32,000 nt of DNA from an uncultured Chloroflexia bacterium (GCA_963718915.1 CAVRAI010000015.1:960001-992000); one strand, 5' to 3'. Shown: positions 5,097 to 20,055, numbered from the stretch's first letter. Notes: generated by a model from the sequence alone, not told the origin. A program made the numbers and translations.

Positions 5097-6497
5097 ATGG
5101 CTGAAGAAGTAGACTACTACGCGGTTCTGGGACTTCCTCCAAGTGCTGACGACGCGACGATCCGGCTGGCCTACCGCCGTCTGGCACGACGCTACCATCC
5201 AGATATTGCCGGAGATGAGAACCTGCATCTGATGCAGACGCTCAATCAGGCGTATCGGACACTGAGCGACCCGGAGCGCCGTCGTCTCTATGACGCCAGC
5301 CGCCCCCCTCCCCTGCCAGTGAGCGACCTAGAGCCGCTCCATACCGCGCCACCGCCACTGGAACGGCCACCGCAACAGGCGCGCCCACCGACACAGACTG
5401 CCCGACGTTCCGAATCGGTGACCGCCAGCATTGGCCCATTACGTCGCCTCGCGGTCTTCAACGATGGCCAGGCGGGCGCCGTCGTCTCGGTCGCACTGGC
5501 GCAGGGTGGCGCGGTGACGGCTGTGGGGCATATTGATGGCCAGATCGCGCTCTGGAACAGCACGCAGGATCGCCCGGTGGCGCGGCTGGCGCTGGGTGCG
5601 CCCGGACAAGCAGGCACGCTGAGCGAGGTGCGTCTCTCGGCTGACGCGGCGCTGGTGATGGCGTGGGGATTCGCGCTGGGCCTCGCCGTCTGGCATGTGG
5701 GCGATGGGGCGCGGCGTTGGTCGAGCCAGATGAATGCGCCGTCGGGTCTGATGGATGCCGTCTTTCTGCCCCATCCCGCGGGACTGCTGCGGCTGGCGCT
5801 GCCCGACGCTCCTCAGGCGCTGGCTGATAGCGATCCGTTTTACTGGGCGGATCGTGGGCGGGGCGGCACTGCCATCTATACCCGACCGCTGCCGGCTAGC
5901 GGGCCGATCCATCCGGGATGGGCCACTCCGCTCTGCTGCTACGAGGATGCGTCTGGTCGACAAAAGCATCCCGAGACGGTTCCCTGGCAGATCAGAGAAC
6001 GGGTACTCTCAGTTGATGGCCGTCGGCTCTTGACGTTTTCGACTGGTCGGCCTGAGGGCAGGCCCCGCTCGCAGATTCTGCGCCTGTGGGATATCGAGGC
6101 GCGCTCGCACCGGGGAACCGTCGAGCCACGGCGCATTGCCGAGGTGATCGAGCCTGACGGCAGATTGCTGTTCCCACTGGCGGCTACGCCCGACCTCGCC
6201 GTCGTTGCCCTGGCGGATTTCCTGGGTCACATGCAGATTCGTTCGCTCGACGGGCGCGTGCGCCGCAGTGTAGCGACTGGCCCTGTGCCGATCGATGCGT
6301 TCGCCGCGTTGACATCAGACGCCGCTTTGCTGGCGCTTGCCCATGGGCAGCGCCTTGACCTCTGGGACACTCGAACCGGCCAGCATCTGCAGAACTGGCA
6401 ACTGACCGCGCCACTCACCGCGCTTTCCTTCGCCCCCGTTGCGCACCCCGTGCTGGCGCTTGGTCTGCCCAATGGGCAGACGGAAATGTGGGGCTAG
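5097..6497 (+). CDS. J-domain (DnaJ-like) protein with Pro-rich linker and C-terminal WD40-like beta-propeller repeats
   Basis: The N-terminus DYYAVLGLPPSADDATIRLAYRRLARRYHPDI...LNQAYRTLSDPERRRLYD is a J domain with HPD. The C-terminal part has recurring hydrophobic-W-D/N motifs (IALWNS, LRLWDIEA, LDLWDTRTGQ, TEMWG). Confidence 0.75.
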   Translation: MAEEVDYYAVLGLPPSADDATIRLAYRRLARRYHPDIAGDENLHLMQTLNQAYRTLSDPERRRLYDASRPPPLPVSDLEPLHTAPPPLERPPQQARPPTQTARRSESVTASIGPLRRLAVFNDGQAGAVVSVALAQGGAVTAVGHIDGQIALWNSTQDRPVARLALGAPGQAGTLSEVRLSADAALVMAWGFALGLAVWHVGDGARRWSSQMNAPSGLMDAVFLPHPAGLLRLALPDAPQALADSDPFYWADRGRGGTAIYTRPLPASGPIHPGWATPLCCYEDASGRQKHPETVPWQIRERVLSVDGRRLLTFSTGRPEGRPRSQILRLWDIEARSHRGTVEPRRIAEVIEPDGRLLFPLAATPDLAVVALADFLGHMQIRSLDGRVRRSVATGPVPIDAFAALTSDAALLALAHGQRLDLWDTRTGQHLQNWQLTAPLTALSFAPVAHPVLALGLPNGQTEMWG

Positions 6498-6651
6498 CGC
6501 TCCGTTGCGCCTCTCTCGTCTCTTCCGTCGCTGGCAGCGGCGAGCGGGTGAATGATAGAGTTACAATGTCTAGAGAGGTCAGCATGGGCCAGTATGCAAG
6601 AGCCGTCGCTGGCCTGTGGACAACCGGAAGGCGACGGAAGGAGCAAACGAG

Positions 6652-7161
6652 ATGGCAGATGGCAATCACGCGGCTGGTGGCAAGCCAAAGATTCTTGGAG
6701 TGCCTCACGAGATGACCGATGACGAGGCGGAGGGCATCTCGCAGATGATCCAGGAGGCCCAGCACTCCGCCCGCCAGCAGACGATCCCCGCCGATGACCT
6801 TGCCGAGAGTGCCACAACTAGCATGCGGCCCGAGGTCGAGCGTGTCGTCGCGGCCAGCCATGTGCGCGACATTCTACGCAAGTTCAATCGTGAATTTCTC
6901 TACAGCCAGGGGCGCTTCGACGAGTATGCGGGGGGGCTGTTGCTCAAATGGGGCGACGGCTACTCGCGGAAACACATCTGGATCACCGTCGAAGGCGATA
7001 ACCTTGTCTTCCAGACAAGCCACGAGCGCTCCTGCGGCAAGAGCGTCTGCGCCAATGGTCACCACAGCTATCCGCCGGATATGTGGCGCGATCCACGTGT
7101 CATCAACGAAGAGCTGGCGGAGCAGTTCCGCCGCCCGGTGCAAGAAAGCAGCGACGACTAA
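6652..7161 (+). CDS. Hypothetical protein (acidic N-terminus, Cys/His-containing C-terminal half)
   Basis: The ORF is open from GTG 6616. ATG 6652 is preceded by SD ggaaggag 7 nt upstream. No family was recognised. Confidence 0.5.
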   Translation: MADGNHAAGGKPKILGVPHEMTDDEAEGISQMIQEAQHSARQQTIPADDLAESATTSMRPEVERVVAASHVRDILRKFNREFLYSQGRFDEYAGGLLLKWGDGYSRKHIWITVEGDNLVFQTSHERSCGKSVCANGHHSYPPDMWRDPRVINEELAEQFRRPVQESSDD

Positions 7162-7224
7162 CAGCGTGACGCATGGCCCAGCGTGTATGCTGACGACGTA
7201 TGGCTAACTGAGAGGACAATCGGT

Positions 7225-12078: not shown

Positions 12079-13677
12079 GTGGCAGCGGATGCGCGCAGGA
12101 TAGTCGAGCGAGCAATCACGCGGGCGGCGCAGCGACACGCGCTCTGGACGCCGGGCGCGCGGCTGGTCGTCGCGGTCTCAGGTGGAGCTGATTCGCTGTG
12201 CCTGCTTGGCGCGCTGCTGGCGTTGCGCGACCGTGGGCATCGTCTCGCGCCGGGCGAGATCATCGTGGCGCATTTCGATCACGGGCTGCGGGGCGAAGAA
12301 AGCAGCGCGGACGCACGCTTTGTGCAACAGGTTGCCGCCGAAGTTGGCGCTCCATTCGTTCTTGGACAACCTGACGTCCCATACTCGACCGAACTGCGCG
12401 TCGGGATCGAGGATTGGGCGCGGCGAACGCGCTACGCCTTTCTGCGGCGGGTCGCAGTGGAGTATGAGGCCGAGCGCATCGTGACTGGCCACACGCACGA
12501 TGACCAGGCCGAGACGATTCTGTTGCACTGGCTACGTGGCAGCGGGCTGGCGGGCATGCGGGGCATGGCGCCCCTGCGCGGCGATATCGCGCGTCCGCTG
12601 CTCGACGTGACTCACGCGCAGACGATGGCCTACTGCACCGCGCTTGGGTGGACGCCGCGTGAGGATAGCAGCAACGCCGATCCGCGCTTTTTGCGCAACC
12701 GCATCCGCCACGAACTGCTGCCGCTGCTCGAAACCTACAATCCAGGCATCCGCGAACGCCTGGCGCGCAATGGTGAACTGCTGGCGGAGGATGAAGCGTA
12801 TCTGGAGGCACAGACTCAGGTAGCTTGGGCTGATGTGTCGGAGAGGCCATACCGGGGCGGCGTTCGACTGGACCGGAAGCTGACGCCTGAGCTACCGCCA
12901 GCGTTACGTCACCGGCTCTATCGCGCCGCCGTCCGCACGGTGAGCAATGGCGAAGTCACCCTGGAGGCGCGCCATATCACGGGGCTTGATAGGCAACTGT
13001 TGGATGGACATACGGGTAGCTTCCGGCGTCTTCCCGGAGGAATCAGCGCCATCATGAAGTATGACGCTCTGGTATTCCAGCAAGATGCCGCTTCAACTTC
13101 CGCGCGAGTTGGCTCTGGGCAGTCCGCGAAGGCGGACTTTGTGGCCGCAGGCCCTTCAGGCGCGGTTTCAACCGCCCGCGCTGGAAATCTCCCGCAGGCG
13201 TGGCAGCTTCCCGTGCCGGGCGCCGTCGCGTTGCCGGAGCTTGGCTGGCGCATCCGCGCGTGGCGCATCGAGGGCGCGCCGGGAAGCGAAGATGCCAGTG
13301 GATTGCCGCCCGCGCCCGCACTACCGTCACTCTCGTTTGCTGACCGGCCAGCCGAAATTGGCCGCGCTGAGTCACGTGTCTACCTGGATGCATCGACTAT
13401 CGGCGAAACGCTGACCGTGCGCGCGTGGCAGCCCGGCGACCGCTTCCGTCCGCTAGGCATGCGTGGCGAGAAGAAGCTACAAGACTACTTCAGCGACGCC
13501 AAGGCGCCGCGCGAGCTACGGGGGCGGCTGCCGCTTGTCTTCAACGCCGACCATCTGGTCTGGGTAGCTGGTCTGCGCATCGACGACCGCGTCCGCCTGA
13601 CGCCGACGACGCAGGCGGTGGTTGTGCTTCAATTGGAGCCGCTCACTGCTCCATCACACGGCGAAAGTAGCTGGTAA
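12079..13677 (+). CDS. tilS: tRNA(Ile)-lysidine synthetase
   Basis: The PP-loop LVVAVSGGADSLCL is followed by HFDHGLRGEES and HTHDDQAETILLHWLRGSG. The C-terminal TilS substrate-binding region reads WQPGDRFRPLGM...KKLQDYF. A likely start is GTG 12079 after gggaga, though the ORF is open from TTG 12022. Confidence 0.85.
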   Translation: MAADARRIVERAITRAAQRHALWTPGARLVVAVSGGADSLCLLGALLALRDRGHRLAPGEIIVAHFDHGLRGEESSADARFVQQVAAEVGAPFVLGQPDVPYSTELRVGIEDWARRTRYAFLRRVAVEYEAERIVTGHTHDDQAETILLHWLRGSGLAGMRGMAPLRGDIARPLLDVTHAQTMAYCTALGWTPREDSSNADPRFLRNRIRHELLPLLETYNPGIRERLARNGELLAEDEAYLEAQTQVAWADVSERPYRGGVRLDRKLTPELPPALRHRLYRAAVRTVSNGEVTLEARHITGLDRQLLDGHTGSFRRLPGGISAIMKYDALVFQQDAASTSARVGSGQSAKADFVAAGPSGAVSTARAGNLPQAWQLPVPGAVALPELGWRIRAWRIEGAPGSEDASGLPPAPALPSLSFADRPAEIGRAESRVYLDASTIGETLTVRAWQPGDRFRPLGMRGEKKLQDYFSDAKAPRELRGRLPLVFNADHLVWVAGLRIDDRVRLTPTTQAVVVLQLEPLTAPSHGESSW

Positions 13678-16399: not shown

Positions 16400-16417
16400 C
16401 GGCAGGTGGTTAAGGGC

Positions 16418-16511
16418 AAATTCGCCGTAGCGTGATGAACGTTCACGTTTTCTTCCCACCCCGTCGAGGTGGGGGTGGGGCAGGCCGTAGCATAAACGCT
16501 ACGGCGAATTT
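16418..16511. repeat. Nested inverted-repeat / hairpin cluster
   Basis: aaattcgccgtagcg (16418-16432) is the perfect reverse complement of cgctacggcgaattt (16497-16511). The enclosed sequence holds a 10-bp palindrome tgaacgttca (16436-16445) and a C/G hairpin (cccacc...ggtggg). It also holds a short hairpin gccgtagc-ataaac-gctacggc. Confidence 0.8.
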
Positions 16512-16562
16512 CCGGGGGTCTGCCCAATTCGCCGGGGCCTTCAGGCTCCGGCAGGCTCACCC
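16483..16562 (-). repeat. ~80-bp structured repeat, copy A (inverted relative to copy B at 18811-18892)
   Basis: The reverse complement of this segment aligns to 18811-18892. The first 21 nt gggtgagcc[t/a]gccggagcctg match 20/21. A shared gcgaatt follows, then a variable middle with indels. The last 27 nt attcgccgtagcgttta[t/c]gctacggc match 26/27. Confidence 0.75.
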
Positions 16563-16732
16563 TACTACACGGTTCGGGGTTTATGCGTAACAGTTCATCA
16601 ACCGCCCGCGCTTCTCACCCGTGCGTCTCGCAAACTCCGCGGCACGCGCCAAACAACACCCTTCCCTTCTAGCTGCCGATGGGCTACACTGTGCCTGCAA
16701 GCCATCACGCCGATACGCTGGAGGAAAAGCCG

Positions 16733-18030
16733 ATGACCGCCTATCGCAACGCCTTCGTCAGCCATGCCCATGCCAATAATGCTCAGTGCGATCCCTTTGT
16801 GGCTGCTTTCCAGCGTCGCGGCGTTAGCCTCTACTACGACCGCGCCGACCCACAGGTTGGCCACGACCTTGGCGAAGCATTGGAGCGTGAACTCGAGCGC
16901 GCCACGGCGCTGATCGTCATGGTCACTCCAGCTGCCCTTGCCTCCTTCTGGGTGCGCGAAGAGATCAGCATCTTCTTCGCCCTCATGGCGCGCGATCCCT
17001 CCCGGCTGCTTATCCCGATCAAATTGGAGGCGTGTGAACTGCCGCCACGTCTGGCGGCGCGCTGGTGGGTGGACGCTACAGATCTCGCGCCGAATGATGT
17101 GGTGGATCAGGTAGTTCAGGCGCTTGCAATAGGGGCGCAGGATCCATCTCTCCCGGTATCCTCACCACCGCGTGATACCCTGCCGCCGCTCGGCCCGGCG
17201 CCCGCGCCCGCCAACAGCGCGCCCGCCCACCACCTGACGCCAATGCCGCTCTACACCCTCGGCTTTCGCGGCTACACCATCGCCGGCGTTGAGTGCATCC
17301 TGCCGCCCATCTGCCCCGTGCCTGGCAGCGTCTTCACTATGGGCAGCGACAAGACCCGCGACAAAGAGGCGCGCGACAACGAGACGCCGCAGTATCCGGT
17401 CGAAGTGGACGCCTTCGCTATCGGTCAGCACCCGGTCACCGTCGCCGAGTATGCCTGCGCCGTTCGCGCGAAAGCAGTGCGCGAGCCGCACGACAATGGG
17501 AACATCGATGTAGACTGGGCGAAGCAGCAGACGCATCCTGACCATCCGGTGGTCTGCGTCTCCTGGAACGATGCGCTCGCCTACACGCCTGGCTGGCGAA
17601 GACGACGGGGCAGGGCTGGCGGCTGCCGAGCGAGGCGGAGTGGGAGAAGGCGGCGCGCGGGACAGATGGGCGCATCTATCCCTGGGGCGACGAATTCGAC
17701 AAAGCGCGCTGCAACACCCACGAGAGCGGCATCGGAACGACCACGCCCGTCGGGCGTTATCCCAACGGCGAGAGTCCCTATCATGTCCAGGACATGACGG
17801 GCAACGTCTGGGAGTGGACAAGCAGCCTCTTCCAGCCCTATCCCTACCGCAAAAACGACGGACGAGAGAATCCAAATTCTACTGATAATCGAGTGCTTCG
17901 TGGCGGTTCGTGGTACGGCGGCTCCAGGAACGCGCGCGCGGCCTACCGCCTCGGCGACAGGCCGGACCACTTCTACAACGACGTAGGGTTTCGGCTCGCT
18001 CTGGCGCGTGCGGGGGCTGGTTCAGCATAA
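16733..18030 (+). pseudogene. TIR domain / FGE-sulfatase (C-type-lectin fold) fusion; DGR target gene, interrupted by a 1-nt frameshift near 17588-17590
   Basis: ATG 16733 follows SD ggagga. The TIR-like N-terminus is AFVSHAHANNAQCDPFVAAFQRRGVSLYYD...LIVMVTPAALASFWVREEI, which carries the SxWxxxE motif. The FGE-sulfatase domain follows (PGSVFTMGSDK...ETPQYPVEVDAFAIGQHPVTVAEYA...HPVVCVSWNDALAY). The domain then continues only in the frame offset by 2: WLAKTTGQGWRLPSEAEWEKAARGTDGRIYPWGDEF...MTGNVWEWTSS...[38 protein letters not shown], ending at stop 18028-18030. Confidence 0.85.
17892..18016 (+). repeat. DGR variable repeat (VR) at the 3' end of the TIR/FGE-sulfatase gene
   Basis: This 125-bp segment aligns without gaps to 18370-18494. 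It has 13 mismatches, all opposite adenines of the other copy. It ends in a 31-nt adenine-free G/C-rich block (gggtttcggctcgctctggcgcgtgcggggg), after which the two copies diverge. Confidence 0.9.
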
Positions 18031-18059
18031 TCCTCTGGTTCTGATTTCTGTTTTCCATT

Positions 18060-18065
18060 TATAAT
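18060..18065 (+). promoter_or_regulatory. Candidate -10 box (TATAAT) in the AT-rich spacer upstream of the TR
   Basis: A perfect tataat sits inside a ~70-nt stretch of about 34% GC by my count, in a window of about 60% GC. Only a weak -35 is present (ttctga/ggttct). Confidence 0.3.
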
Positions 18066-18369
18066 AGAATGAACATGATAGTAGAAGTAGAGAGGTGGAA
18101 TGTGTTTCTGGTCGCGCGCAGCGCGGAAAAATTTGGAGAAATCTCACAGCTCGCTATCAGGCGAAAGCCAAGCAATGTATTGCTGGTGGCGTGAACAGGG
18201 ATACCAAAAGCCGCTCTTCAAAGGTATGTTCGTTGCGCATGCGCGCTGTAAAGCCCCGCTAAAGTCCTGCCCATGAACTTGCGGAGCGATCCGCCTCGTC
18301 GTAATGATTGCGGTGAGCGCGCGGGAGGTCGCTCCTCCTTGCGCGCGCTCCGTGGGGCAGACCGAACCC

Positions 18370-18494
18370 AGTGCTTCGTGGCGGTTCGTGGAACAACAAC
18401 TCCAGGAACGCGCGCGCGGCCTACCGCAACGACAACAGGCCGGACAACTTCAACAACAACGAAGGGTTTCGGCTCGCTCTGGCGCGTGCGGGGG
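18370..18494 (+). repeat. DGR template repeat (TR), non-coding, AAC-rich
   Basis: It contains 28 adenines and 10 AAC codons in the VR-equivalent register (aacaacaac, aacgacaac, aacttcaacaacaacgaa). All 97 non-A positions are identical to the VR, while 13 of the 28 A positions differ. The ORFs overlapping it (18273..18572, 18371..18607 and antisense 18218..18565) look like by-products of the repeat. Confidence 0.9.
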
Positions 18495-18705
18495 ATGATC
18501 CAGCGTTTCCGGCCAGTAAATCCGCACGAGTCCCGCTTGCGGGAGATCGACGGACGCGGCCCCATATGCTGAACCAGCGCGGTCTTGTCCCGGCTGAGGC
18601 CAGATGACGCCGTACACGTCCATGTGGCCAGCTAAATATAAAATATGCCTGCCTCCCGCAACCGACTGAAAACGTCGGCAATAACGGCTGTGTGGTGTGT
18701 CACCC

Positions 18706-18735
18706 CTGCCGCGATGCGCGGGGCAGACGCTTTTT
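18706..18735 (+). terminator. Intrinsic-terminator-like hairpin plus T5 run downstream of the TR
   Basis: The stem is ctgccgcg / atg / cgcggggcag, 8 bp with a 2-nt bulge. It is followed after 4 nt by ttttt (18731-18735). Confidence 0.4.
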
Positions 18736-18810
18736 CCTTGTGCGATCCACCTCACCAGGAGTACACCCCGCGCCATCAAAGCGTACCGATTAACTCCGAA
18801 CAGCGTGCTG

Positions 18811-18892
18811 GGGTGAGCCAGCCGGAGCCTGCCAGCGAATTTCCGCCCTCAAGTGACGCTCTGCTCATTCGCCGTAGCGTTTACGCTACGGC
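18811..18892 (+). repeat. ~80-bp structured repeat, copy B (inverted partner of 16483-16562)
   Basis: The sequence is gggtgagccagccggagcctg...gcgaattt...cattcgccgtagcgtttacgctacggc. It contains the internal hairpin gccgtagc-gtttac-gctacggc and the gcgaat/attcgc arms. Confidence 0.75.
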
Positions 18893-18989
18893 TTGCCGCG
18901 CCCGCCACGGCGCATGGTGTTCGGAATAAAACGCCCGCGCTCCTACAACCGCCCGCCCCCGCTCGCCATCACGACGCCTCTGCGTCCCC

Positions 18990-19493
18990 TCACACGATAT
19001 CGGCGTCGCCAGTCAGCACGCGCTCGCCGCGCTGATTCTCGATCCACACATCGGCCTGTCGCGGCTTGTCCGGCTCGGCTGCTCGCAGCACTCCCTTGCA
19101 CGTGAGCGTATCGCCTGGACGCACCATCGCCTGGAAGCGCACCCGCAGCCTCCCCAGCCGTCCGTGGCCTGGAGCGGCTGTGAGCCAGTCGGTCAGCGCC
19201 TGCCCCGCGAACGCCATACTGAGCATGCCGTGGGCAATCGTACCGTCGAGGCCAACCGAACGCGCAACATCAGGGTTGATGTGGATGGGGTTGTGATCGC
19301 CGCTGACATCGGCATAGGCGTCAATCTGCGCCTGCGTCACCGTCTTGATCAGCGCTGGTAATGGCTCGCCCTCGCGCTCCTTCGCCGGTTTGCTGGCTGC
19401 GGTTGCGGTCGCGGCGGTTTCCCCGGCACGATGTCGCGCACGATGATCGTCGCCTTCCCCGTGACCGCGCGCTCGCCCGTGGCGGTATCGCAT
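18990..19493 (-). CDS. MaoC-like (R)-specific enoyl-CoA hydratase / dehydratase hotdog domain
   Basis: VTQAQIDAYADVSGDHNPIHINPDVARSVGLDGTIAHGMLSMAF is the MaoC dehydratase signature. The only in-frame start (ATG 19493) gives an odd Arg/His-rich N-terminus that overlaps the upstream gene by 145 nt, so the true 5' end is doubtful. Confidence 0.7.
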   Translation of the reverse strand: MRYRHGRARGHGEGDDHRARHRAGETAATATAASKPAKEREGEPLPALIKTVTQAQIDAYADVSGDHNPIHINPDVARSVGLDGTIAHGMLSMAFAGQALTDWLTAAPGHGRLGRLRVRFQAMVRPGDTLTCKGVLRAAEPDKPRQADVWIENQRGERVLTGDADIV

Positions 19494-19852
19494 AACTGCT
19501 CGATGGTCATCAGCGCCATGCCACGAGACTGGCGGATGCTGGCGATGCGGTGCCGTACTGTCACTGCGTCGCCCACGCCAATCGGGCGCTCGTACACATA
19601 TTCCTGCTCGCCGTGTAGCACCTGCGAGTGCTCGGTATCCAGACCAGCCTCGGCGAACGAGACAATGAAGCGTGTTACGAAGGTTGGTGGCGCGGGAATC
19701 GTGGTGTATCCGGCGGCGCGGGCGGCGCTTTCATCACGATAGATGGGCGAGCTATCGGCGATGGCGTCGGCGAACTGCTGGACGGCCGTCGCGCTTATGA
19801 CATCGCTTTGTGGCGATGTCTCGTGTCCGACGAGTGAAGGATCGAGCGGCAT
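19349..19852 (-). CDS. MaoC dehydratase N-terminal-type hotdog domain protein (HadA / FAS1 DH N-domain-like)
   Basis: ATG 19852 follows gggggag. The sequence reads MPLDPSLVGHETSPQSDVISATAVQQFADAIADSSPIYRDESAARAAGYTTIPAPPTF...HGEQEYVYERPIGVGD. The listed ORF extends to 19930. Confidence 0.7.
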   Translation of the reverse strand: MPLDPSLVGHETSPQSDVISATAVQQFADAIADSSPIYRDESAARAAGYTTIPAPPTFVTRFIVSFAEAGLDTEHSQVLHGEQEYVYERPIGVGDAVTVRHRIASIRQSRGMALMTIEQLCDTATGERAVTGKATIIVRDIVPGKPPRPQPQPANRRRSARASHYQR

Positions 19853-20055
19853 AGAACTCCCCCTGTGATGTCCGCTAATTTCGGCGGGTCCGGCTGAGCG
19901 ATCCCGCACGAAATCGGTGAGATTTTTCACTGTTGCAGCGCCTGCTTCTCAGGGTAACATATGTGTAGCCTCATGGCGTAGTAGCCAGAGAATATAGAAC
20001 ACCTGCACTACTTCGATGACTTTATCGCTATTTGACAATGGGAGGATCCCCACAC

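Follow-up and report, generated by a model that had tools for sequence, protein, structure and literature searches.

Diversity-generating retroelements (DGRs) that lack part of their own machinery have already been described in bacteria, the case nearest to ours being Thiohalocapsa PB-PSB1, where incomplete DGR loci were reported together with sequences resembling transposable elements of the miniature inverted-repeat type (MITEs) that replace DGR components, and with probable service in trans (Dore et al. 2024, PMC10907252). In phage BPP-1, cDNA synthesis by bRT-Avd, the complex of the reverse transcriptase (RT) with Avd, needs RNA both up- and downstream of the template repeat (TR) (bioRxiv 10.1101/2023.10.23.563531; PMC6182149), and in Trichodesmium erythraeum IMS101 apparent variable repeat (VR) targets are spread over at least 12 genes, of which only two are shown adjoining the TR, and a stop codon interrupts the RT gene (PMC4143802). 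Here, we analyse a 32,000-nt stretch of DNA from an uncultured Chloroflexia bacterium (GCA_963718915.1, CAVRAI010000015.1:960001-992000; "the window" hereafter means this whole stretch), which carries a DGR target gene with its VR and a TR module, and in which the RT and avd genes have given way to unrelated DNA. We prefer, at about an even chance, to read this locus as a degenerate DGR cassette that was orphaned very recently and is unable to diversify by itself. A first-pass annotation of the sequence had proposed an orphan TR, either served in trans by a distant RT or left behind by recent loss of RT and avd, and both options stand, with relatives now showing that an RT-avd block is missing; its remark that trans service would be an unusual split architecture needs softening, given that some of the incomplete Thiohalocapsa loci are apparently trans-served (PMC10907252).

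The repeats of the window form a textbook DGR pair, with the VR upstream and the TR downstream. A single pair of 125-nt direct repeats was found (17892-18016 and 18370-18494), and its two members agree at 97/97 non-adenine template positions, just as the first-pass annotation had reported, with all 13 mismatches falling on TR adenines. Read from the alignment and translation, the changes in the VR frame affect codon position 1 or 2 only and lie mostly in AAC codons. Matches of a 57-nt adenine-masked pattern in the window were the VR and TR sites alone (chance expectation 0), and no other copy of the masked VR/TR pattern was found in genome-contig or metagenome-contig collections, among which the source contig is not included. 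Toward their ends (VR CTGGTTCAGC aligned with TR ATGATCCAGC), the repeats share a 32-nt identical GC-rich stretch followed by related but differing sequences, CTGGTTCAGCATAA (VR) and ATGATCCAGCGTTT (TR), with a putative role as initiation of mutagenic homing (IMH) and IMH* sites. The features of the locus, in window coordinates, are as follows:

16401-16660, no strand assigned: left flank, a palindromic element resembling MITEs or repetitive extragenic palindromic (REP) sequences, with an arm at 16446-16589 that is an inverted repeat of 18784-18933.
16679-18030, plus strand: DGR target gene with TIR_2 and FGE-sulfatase (C-type-lectin-fold) domains, from Pfam matches and 82.5% DNA identity to the target of L001, a complete relative.
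17892-18016, plus strand: VR, encoding the last ~42 residues of the target.
18017-18049, plus strand: IMH-like VR end, stop codon, and conserved post-VR segment, from the alignment; homology to L001 runs to 18049.
18050-18326, no strand assigned: filler of 277 bp in the place of RT and avd, without a DNA match to the RT-avd interval of L001 and holding a 58-aa open reading frame (ORF).
18327-18369, plus strand: 5' flank of the TR module with a small hairpin; homology to L001 and to L088, another complete relative, begins at 18322-18327.
18370-18494, plus strand: TR, rich in AAC codons and with 28 adenines, from the alignment and pattern scan.
18495-18738, plus strand: structured RNA domain on the 3' side of the TR, for which RNAalifold predicts nine helices, 90% identical to L001 and 84% to L088.
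18739-18945, no strand assigned: right flank, an inverted copy of the palindromic element, with its arm at 18784-18933 and a hairpin at 18871-18892.

What is missing from this layout becomes apparent against related loci, the complete ones of which show the clade's order of a TIR-FGE target with its VR, then RT, bAvd (PF22296), the TR, and a structured RNA of ~240 nt. The target-RT-bAvd-TR order was seen in L001, L088, L089, and L091-L094, and the RT of complete relatives (358-370 aa, RVT_1) lies with bAvd between VR and TR. For example, in L001 (GCA_036557205.1), whose target is 77% identical to that of the window, an RVT_1 gene and an Avd-like gene come after the target, and then the TR and a conserved non-coding stretch. 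Window and L001 are homologous over two stretches, namely 16661-18049 (target, VR, and 19 nt past the stop; 82.5% identity) and 18327-18738 (43 nt 5' of the TR, the TR, and 244 nt 3' of it; 84% overall), and between these L001 has 1623 bp with RT and avd where the window has 277 bp of unrelated sequence. Because the homology flanks 18050-18326 on both sides while the interval itself differs, the 1.6-kb RT-avd block has been replaced in the window by 277 bp of unrelated non-coding DNA. Given the clade order, the place of the missing genes is within the 353-bp VR-TR spacer, as opposed to the sequence that follows the TR.

Searches of the window agree with this. Pfam scans of 30 ORFs tiling the 32 kb returned housekeeping families only (including Mfd, TilS, Pth, HflX, a transketolase-like family, an ECF sigma/anti-sigma pair, and MaoC), with no match to RVT_1 and none to bAvd or 23S_rRNA_IVP in any scanned ORF. 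The six [YF]xDD tetrapeptides present in the six frames have surroundings that are not RT-like, and in tblastn against the window the best E-value was 0.18 for the L001 RT and 0.12 for the two halves of the L001 Avd. The Pfam scans, the tetrapeptide contexts, and tblastn with the L001 proteins together bear out the initial statement that the 32 kb hold no RT or Avd. The ORF listing likewise upholds the description of the spacer (18017-18369, 353 bp) as having no ORF of 60 aa or more, the largest being the 58-aa ORF at 18100-18276. The remark that only short ORFs follow the TR fails literally, as ORFs of 86-115 aa lie over or after it (18273-18572 and 18645-18929 on the plus strand, and three on the minus strand), and holds in that none has a family match; the DNA of these ORFs is homologous to non-coding TR flank in relatives, and Pfam gave no family match for ORFs over the VR-TR spacer and TR flank.

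The filler has a GC content of 51%, compared with 62% for the window, and blastn found no DNA match to the 1623-bp RT-avd interval of L001 nor to the other related loci compared; no repeat structure or homologue was detected in it. Blastn and tblastn rule it out as a remnant of RT or avd. Its 58-aa ORF had no significant Pfam match (best E = 0.2) and, against 1.84 billion representative proteins, drew only three internally repetitive matches that were judged spurious, which rules out a truncated Avd or a new accessory protein.

The TR has kept its surroundings. The ~500 bp after it, previously described as holding only short ORFs, include ~245 nt of conserved structured RNA that is part of the TR module, and this 3' domain aligns among the window, L001 (13100-13343), and L088 (3010-3243), and more distantly with L091 (about 6690-6960). 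From these four sequences, RNAalifold predicted nine helices comprising 72 pairs, with 92% of cells paired and both-sided changes in 17 of the 72 pairs, as compared to 5.9 ± 2.1 in column shuffles (0/500 reached 17) and 1-5 in slid controls; with four sequences, this covariation is supportive of the fold and not proof of it. L091, whose RT is 75% identical, keeps 50/72 of the pairs. On the other side, ~40 nt 5' of the TR, a hairpin at 18323-18338 reads GGGAGG-UCGCU-CCUCC and takes the form GAUGG-UCGCU-CCAUC in L001, a compensatory change when read from the alignment (GGAGG/CCUCC in the window versus GAUGG/CCAUC). Rfam gave no match on the TR flanks at the gathering score (a sub-threshold symR match at 18297-18349 was the only one), and a conserved 20-mer of the 3' domain had no match in metagenome-contig or viral-contig collections. 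Scans after the TR domain found no intrinsic terminator or sigma-70 promoter, and a hairpin there that had been considered as a terminator is instead the closing stem of the conserved RNA domain. Judged by its sequence, the TR module is intact in the window, and by analogy the RNA flanking the TR would bind RT-Avd, its 3' domain being the likely counterpart of the BPP-1 "spacer" RNA that RT-Avd requires.

Rates of change place these observations in time. At 4-fold sites, the window's housekeeping genes (Mfd, Pth, PMT, and anti-sigma, compared through L086, which is from the same metagenome-assembled genome (MAG) as L001) have diverged from those of the L001 organism by 0.25-0.35, and the target, at 0.32, looks vertically inherited because its divergence matches theirs. 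The 3' RNA domain has diverged by 0.098 from that of L001, which is ~3-4 times slower than 4-fold sites and, relative to the neutral rate, close to what is seen for the two complete DGRs L001 and L088 (0.126 for the domain versus 0.45 at 4-fold sites). Relaxed constraint on the window's TR module, as raised by a longer window branch in a distance estimate, was not supported by a site-by-site relative-rate count. For the repeats themselves, 0/97 non-adenine differences correspond, by our own inference, to a 95% upper bound of ~0.03 on VR-TR divergence (looser if the sites are constrained), which is below roughly one tenth of the neutral distance separating the window from L001. Homing is therefore either ongoing or stopped very recently, which is what the first-pass annotation had concluded from the same identity; the neutral divergence from the nearest relative is 0.27-0.35.

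Whether an RT elsewhere in the source could serve the TR was approached through protein searches. Three proteins of the source contig were recognised in NCBI and ENA (P0005, P0086, and P0244). None of the best 120 matches to the L001 RT (down to ~59% identity) lies on the source contig, and the best ones besides the query's own are 74-78% identical and come from short contigs from Logan, ENA, JGI, and NCBI. Scaling RT divergence to 4-fold divergence, the cognate RT would be expected at ~85-90% identity to that of L001, and no RT at 85-90% identity from NCBI or ENA, the sources of the three recognised proteins, is among the best 120 matches. With no match at the expected identity nor on the source contig among these 120, the search speaks for the source assembly lacking the cognate RT.

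DGR decay is common in this Ktedonobacterales clade. L002 shares the synteny of L001 without RT or TR, L095 has the target only, and for most TIR-FGE paralogues in related genomes the surrounding 10 kb contain no RT or TR; those that the L001 genome has besides its DGR target do not fit the TR found there. In L012 (11150-11400; MFD00031.bin.2.123, contig_48616), the VR is fused within the IMH (CTGGTT joined to CCAGCG) to the TR 3' flank with nothing between, which looks like the expected product of homologous recombination between VR and TR. The target of L012 is also broken into several ORFs. The locus running from an MFS gene to a DUF1501 gene exists both with (L001 10001-13420) and without (L002 10001-11500) the RT-avd-TR block, and the sigma-MaoC intergenic regions of L086 and L087 are identical over the 235 bp compared, so presence/absence polymorphism among close relatives is suggested. 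Within L001 itself, 11/13 of the VR-TR mismatches are at adenines, and its avd (12510-12900) occupies two reading frames, switching near 12640, despite k141-style contig names suggestive of short-read assembly.

Regarding the target gene, its FGE-sulfatase domain extends to the C-terminus (Pfam, E = 4.7e-32), with the VR at the C-terminal end of the gene product, and M19, at 16733, is probably where its annotation begins. ThsB, SAVED-TIR, and other defence TIRs are weakly similar to the TIR part, and a protein search with the reconstructed target found many relatives in Ktedonobacterales MAGs. In the window, a 1-nt deletion at 17588, located at a CCTGG motif, disrupts the target frame (compared with L001, L002, and L012), and P0005, the source's own shortened call of the target (354 aa, 100% identical), continues in the wrong frame until a stop at 17797. 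The neighbouring MaoC-like dehydratase gene (18990-19930, minus strand), which is a single gene of 287-289 aa in relatives, falls into two ORFs that overlap, owing to the loss of 1 nt near 19430, the gene strand reading CCGGG-GAAACC in the window versus CTGGGAGAAACC in L086 or CCAGGAGAAGCC in L085, and this deletion is probably a long-read assembly indel. Split genes are also found in related MFD MAG contigs, whose names look long-read (the L012 target and UvrC in L095), and P0086, a second TIR-FGE paralogue encoded by the source contig, leaves its frame at "WLAKT" and stays out of it across the VR and beyond the normal stop. In view of the similar deletion in the adjacent MaoC gene, the split genes of the related MFD contigs, and the out-of-frame P0086, the frameshift at 17588 is probably also a long-read assembly error and was given little weight. 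Pseudogenisation of the target, of which it could have been a sign, was set aside on the MaoC deletion, the split genes in related MAGs, and the CCTGG motif. By our own reading, the P0086 VR does not fit the window TR, being one codon longer and having non-adenine differences. The post-VR segment at 18017-18049 recurs in the read-through tail of this paralogue, and the tail after its VR resembles window 18031-18075.

The target and TR module lie within a 2.5-kb segment (16401-18945) inserted between the anti-sigma gene and the MaoC gene. In three relatives, whose orthologous regions were located via the anti-sigma protein, the site is empty and the anti-sigma gene is directly followed by MaoC, PMT_2, Pth, and Mfd:

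L085, from the same ENA assembly record as the MFD05502.bin.2.92 contig (L004/L006): anti-sigma-MaoC gap of 48 bp.
L086, from the same MAG as L001: gap of 189 bp.
L087, from a JGI sample: gap of 189 bp.

Similarity to these relatives ends at 16400 and resumes at 18946 (L086) or 18994 (L085), and from this break in synteny 16401-18945 is specific to the window's lineage; the L001 DGR sits elsewhere, between an MFS gene and a DUF1501 gene. The flanking elements are ~150 bp long, in inverted orientation, and about 70-79% identical to each other, the left one having a perfect 16-bp inverted repeat (16418-16433 and 16496-16511) and a DNA fold z-score of -4.6. Their palindrome core is GCCGTAGCnnnnnnGCTACGGC, and no further copy of the palindrome was found in the window or the 95 related loci. 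It is plausible that these palindromes mobilised the cassette. Separately, L085 carries an IS605 OrfB/TnpB-type gene (6049-7182) between its lyase and sigma-factor genes, which is absent from the window.

Under the reading that we prefer, a cassette orphaned very recently, the ancestral layout was that of the relatives, i.e., a target with a C-terminal VR, then RT, bAvd, and the TR with its 5' hairpin and ~240-nt 3' structured RNA. By established DGR biology, RT-Avd would have attached to the structured RNA flanking the TR and made a cDNA of the TR in which adenines are answered by random bases, and the mutagenised cDNA would have replaced the VR by IMH-directed homing. The target and TR module came to lie at a new site between the anti-sigma and MaoC genes, bracketed by the MITE-like palindromes, and the 1.6-kb RT-avd block was swapped for the 277 bp of non-coding DNA. 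Since VR and TR show no non-adenine difference, the last homing event would be recent, and the locus, now without cognate RT-Avd, would be frozen and would resume only if a matching RT-Avd acted in trans.

Several observations weigh against this orphaned state. The TR module looks fully functional, with 69/72 of the predicted pairs kept as compared to 70/72 in each of the RT-linked L001 and L088, and with L088 as the outgroup the window and L001 have 23 lineage-specific changes each over the whole module, and 10 versus 5 in the 3' domain (p = 0.30). The breakpoints lie just outside the sequence conserved with L001, sparing the target with the 19 nt after its stop at one end and the TR module at the other; an RT may exist on another contig, be less similar, or be unassembled or fragmented by indels; and it is improbable a priori that a relic would be sampled so early, before about a tenth of the time since divergence from the nearest sequenced relative had passed. 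Possible, though we lean away from it, is a still-active satellite whose TR RNA is used by RT-Avd encoded elsewhere, in a complete DGR of the same class or a related one. This would account for the 97/97 identity alongside 13 adenine-specific changes, for an intact TR module under the same constraint as RT-linked copies, with its 3' domain ~3-4 times slower than 4-fold sites, and for a deletion that took out RT and avd exactly and nothing more, and the source contig does carry at least one further TIR-FGE paralogue (P0086). Precedents exist, in that plasmid-borne avd, TR, and brt function in trans (PMC5758913), purified bRT-Avd acts on separately supplied DGR RNA (PMC6182149), and incomplete Thiohalocapsa PB-PSB1 loci are diversified, some apparently by a complete DGR elsewhere (PMC10907252). 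However, no RT on the source contig, or of source-assembly provenance, appeared among the best 120 homologues of the L001 RT, the P0086 VR is unfit for the window TR given its extra codon and non-adenine differences, and target paralogues in the L001 genome mismatch that genome's TR too. The RNA domain also shifts greatly between RTs that are 75% identical, as the 50/72 pairs of L091 illustrate, and a distant RT may therefore fail to recognise the window TR.

A more specific form of trans service, which we consider unlikely, is that 16401-18945 would be a non-autonomous mobilisable DGR cassette, made up of a target gene and a private TR RNA module and bracketed by its MITE-like elements, which moved to a new chromosomal site without RT or Avd and goes on diversifying with RT-Avd borrowed from elsewhere; such a "satellite" would stand to its master DGR as a MITE does to its parent transposon. 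Less probable still is that the window represents an assembled deletion variant in a polymorphic population, in which strains with RT-avd coexist and diversify in cis. Long reads revealed such a situation at two Thiohalocapsa DGR loci (PMC10907252), the RT-avd-TR block is present or absent at one locus between L001 and L002 in organisms with identical 235-bp sigma-MaoC intergenic regions, and the source is probably a MAG, by analogy with related MFD MAG records. Against this stand the 277-bp filler, which is not a simple deletion scar, and the best 120 protein matches, which contain no RT orthologue from NCBI or ENA. Finally, we give next to no credence to repeats that have nothing to do with DGRs and arose by ordinary duplication or chance: the sole point in favour is the absent RT, and this explanation is ruled out by mismatches confined to template adenines (13/13) and to codon positions 1 and 2, and by the homology of the repeat and its flanks to TR modules adjoining RT and bAvd in relatives.

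As a recently orphaned relic, which is how we prefer to read it, the locus would offer a snapshot of DGR death in which the enzyme genes are lost first and the RNA template and target survive, with sister loci representing further stages (those reduced to the target, and one whose VR and TR have merged through recombination), and it would be useful to annotators, who now locate DGRs via the RT. If it is instead served in trans, the TR module and its flanking RNA would form a portable unit separable from the RT, with bearing on how one RT might run several diversification cassettes and on multi-template DGR engineering. In either case, the ~240-nt structured RNA, which has no Rfam match, is a usable candidate marker for RT-less TRs in Chloroflexota.

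Compared with known systems, the window most resembles Thiohalocapsa PB-PSB1, which likewise has a chromosomal DGR with a C-type-lectin-fold target (some Thiohalocapsa targets also carry TIR effector domains; PMC10907252), lacks key machinery while a VR still matches a TR at every non-adenine site, shows MITE-like palindromic repeats associated with the loss (a putative association in the window), and raises the same question of trans service or relic. There, however, MITE-like repeat arrays replace the RT, a complete DGR of the same class exists elsewhere in the genome, and diversification was measured in natural populations, whereas the filler of the window has no detected repeats, the MITE-like elements flank the cassette instead of replacing the RT, the window keeps its own complete TR module, and the host is a Ktedonobacterales-like member of the Chloroflexota. 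The complete Ktedonobacterales DGRs (L001, L088, and L091-L094) have an orthologous or homologous TIR-FGE target, the same VR type, and a homologous TR, 5' hairpin, and 3' RNA, and differ in having RT and bAvd between VR and TR in place of the 277 bp and in lying at other chromosomal loci. With Bordetella phage BPP-1, the window shares adenine-specific TR-to-VR transfer, a VR at the C-terminus of a C-type-lectin-fold protein, and a putative IMH-like asymmetry of the repeat ends, but the phage has all components in cis in the order mtd/VR, avd, TR, and brt, whereas the window is chromosomal and has no RT or Avd, and the normal order in its clade places RT and avd upstream of the TR. The TR of the Trichodesmium erythraeum IMS101 DGR is likewise a discrete non-coding RNA unit, of ~265 nt (PMC4143802), but it adjoins the RT gene and one TR is paired with many VRs, whereas the window has a private TR beside its own VR.

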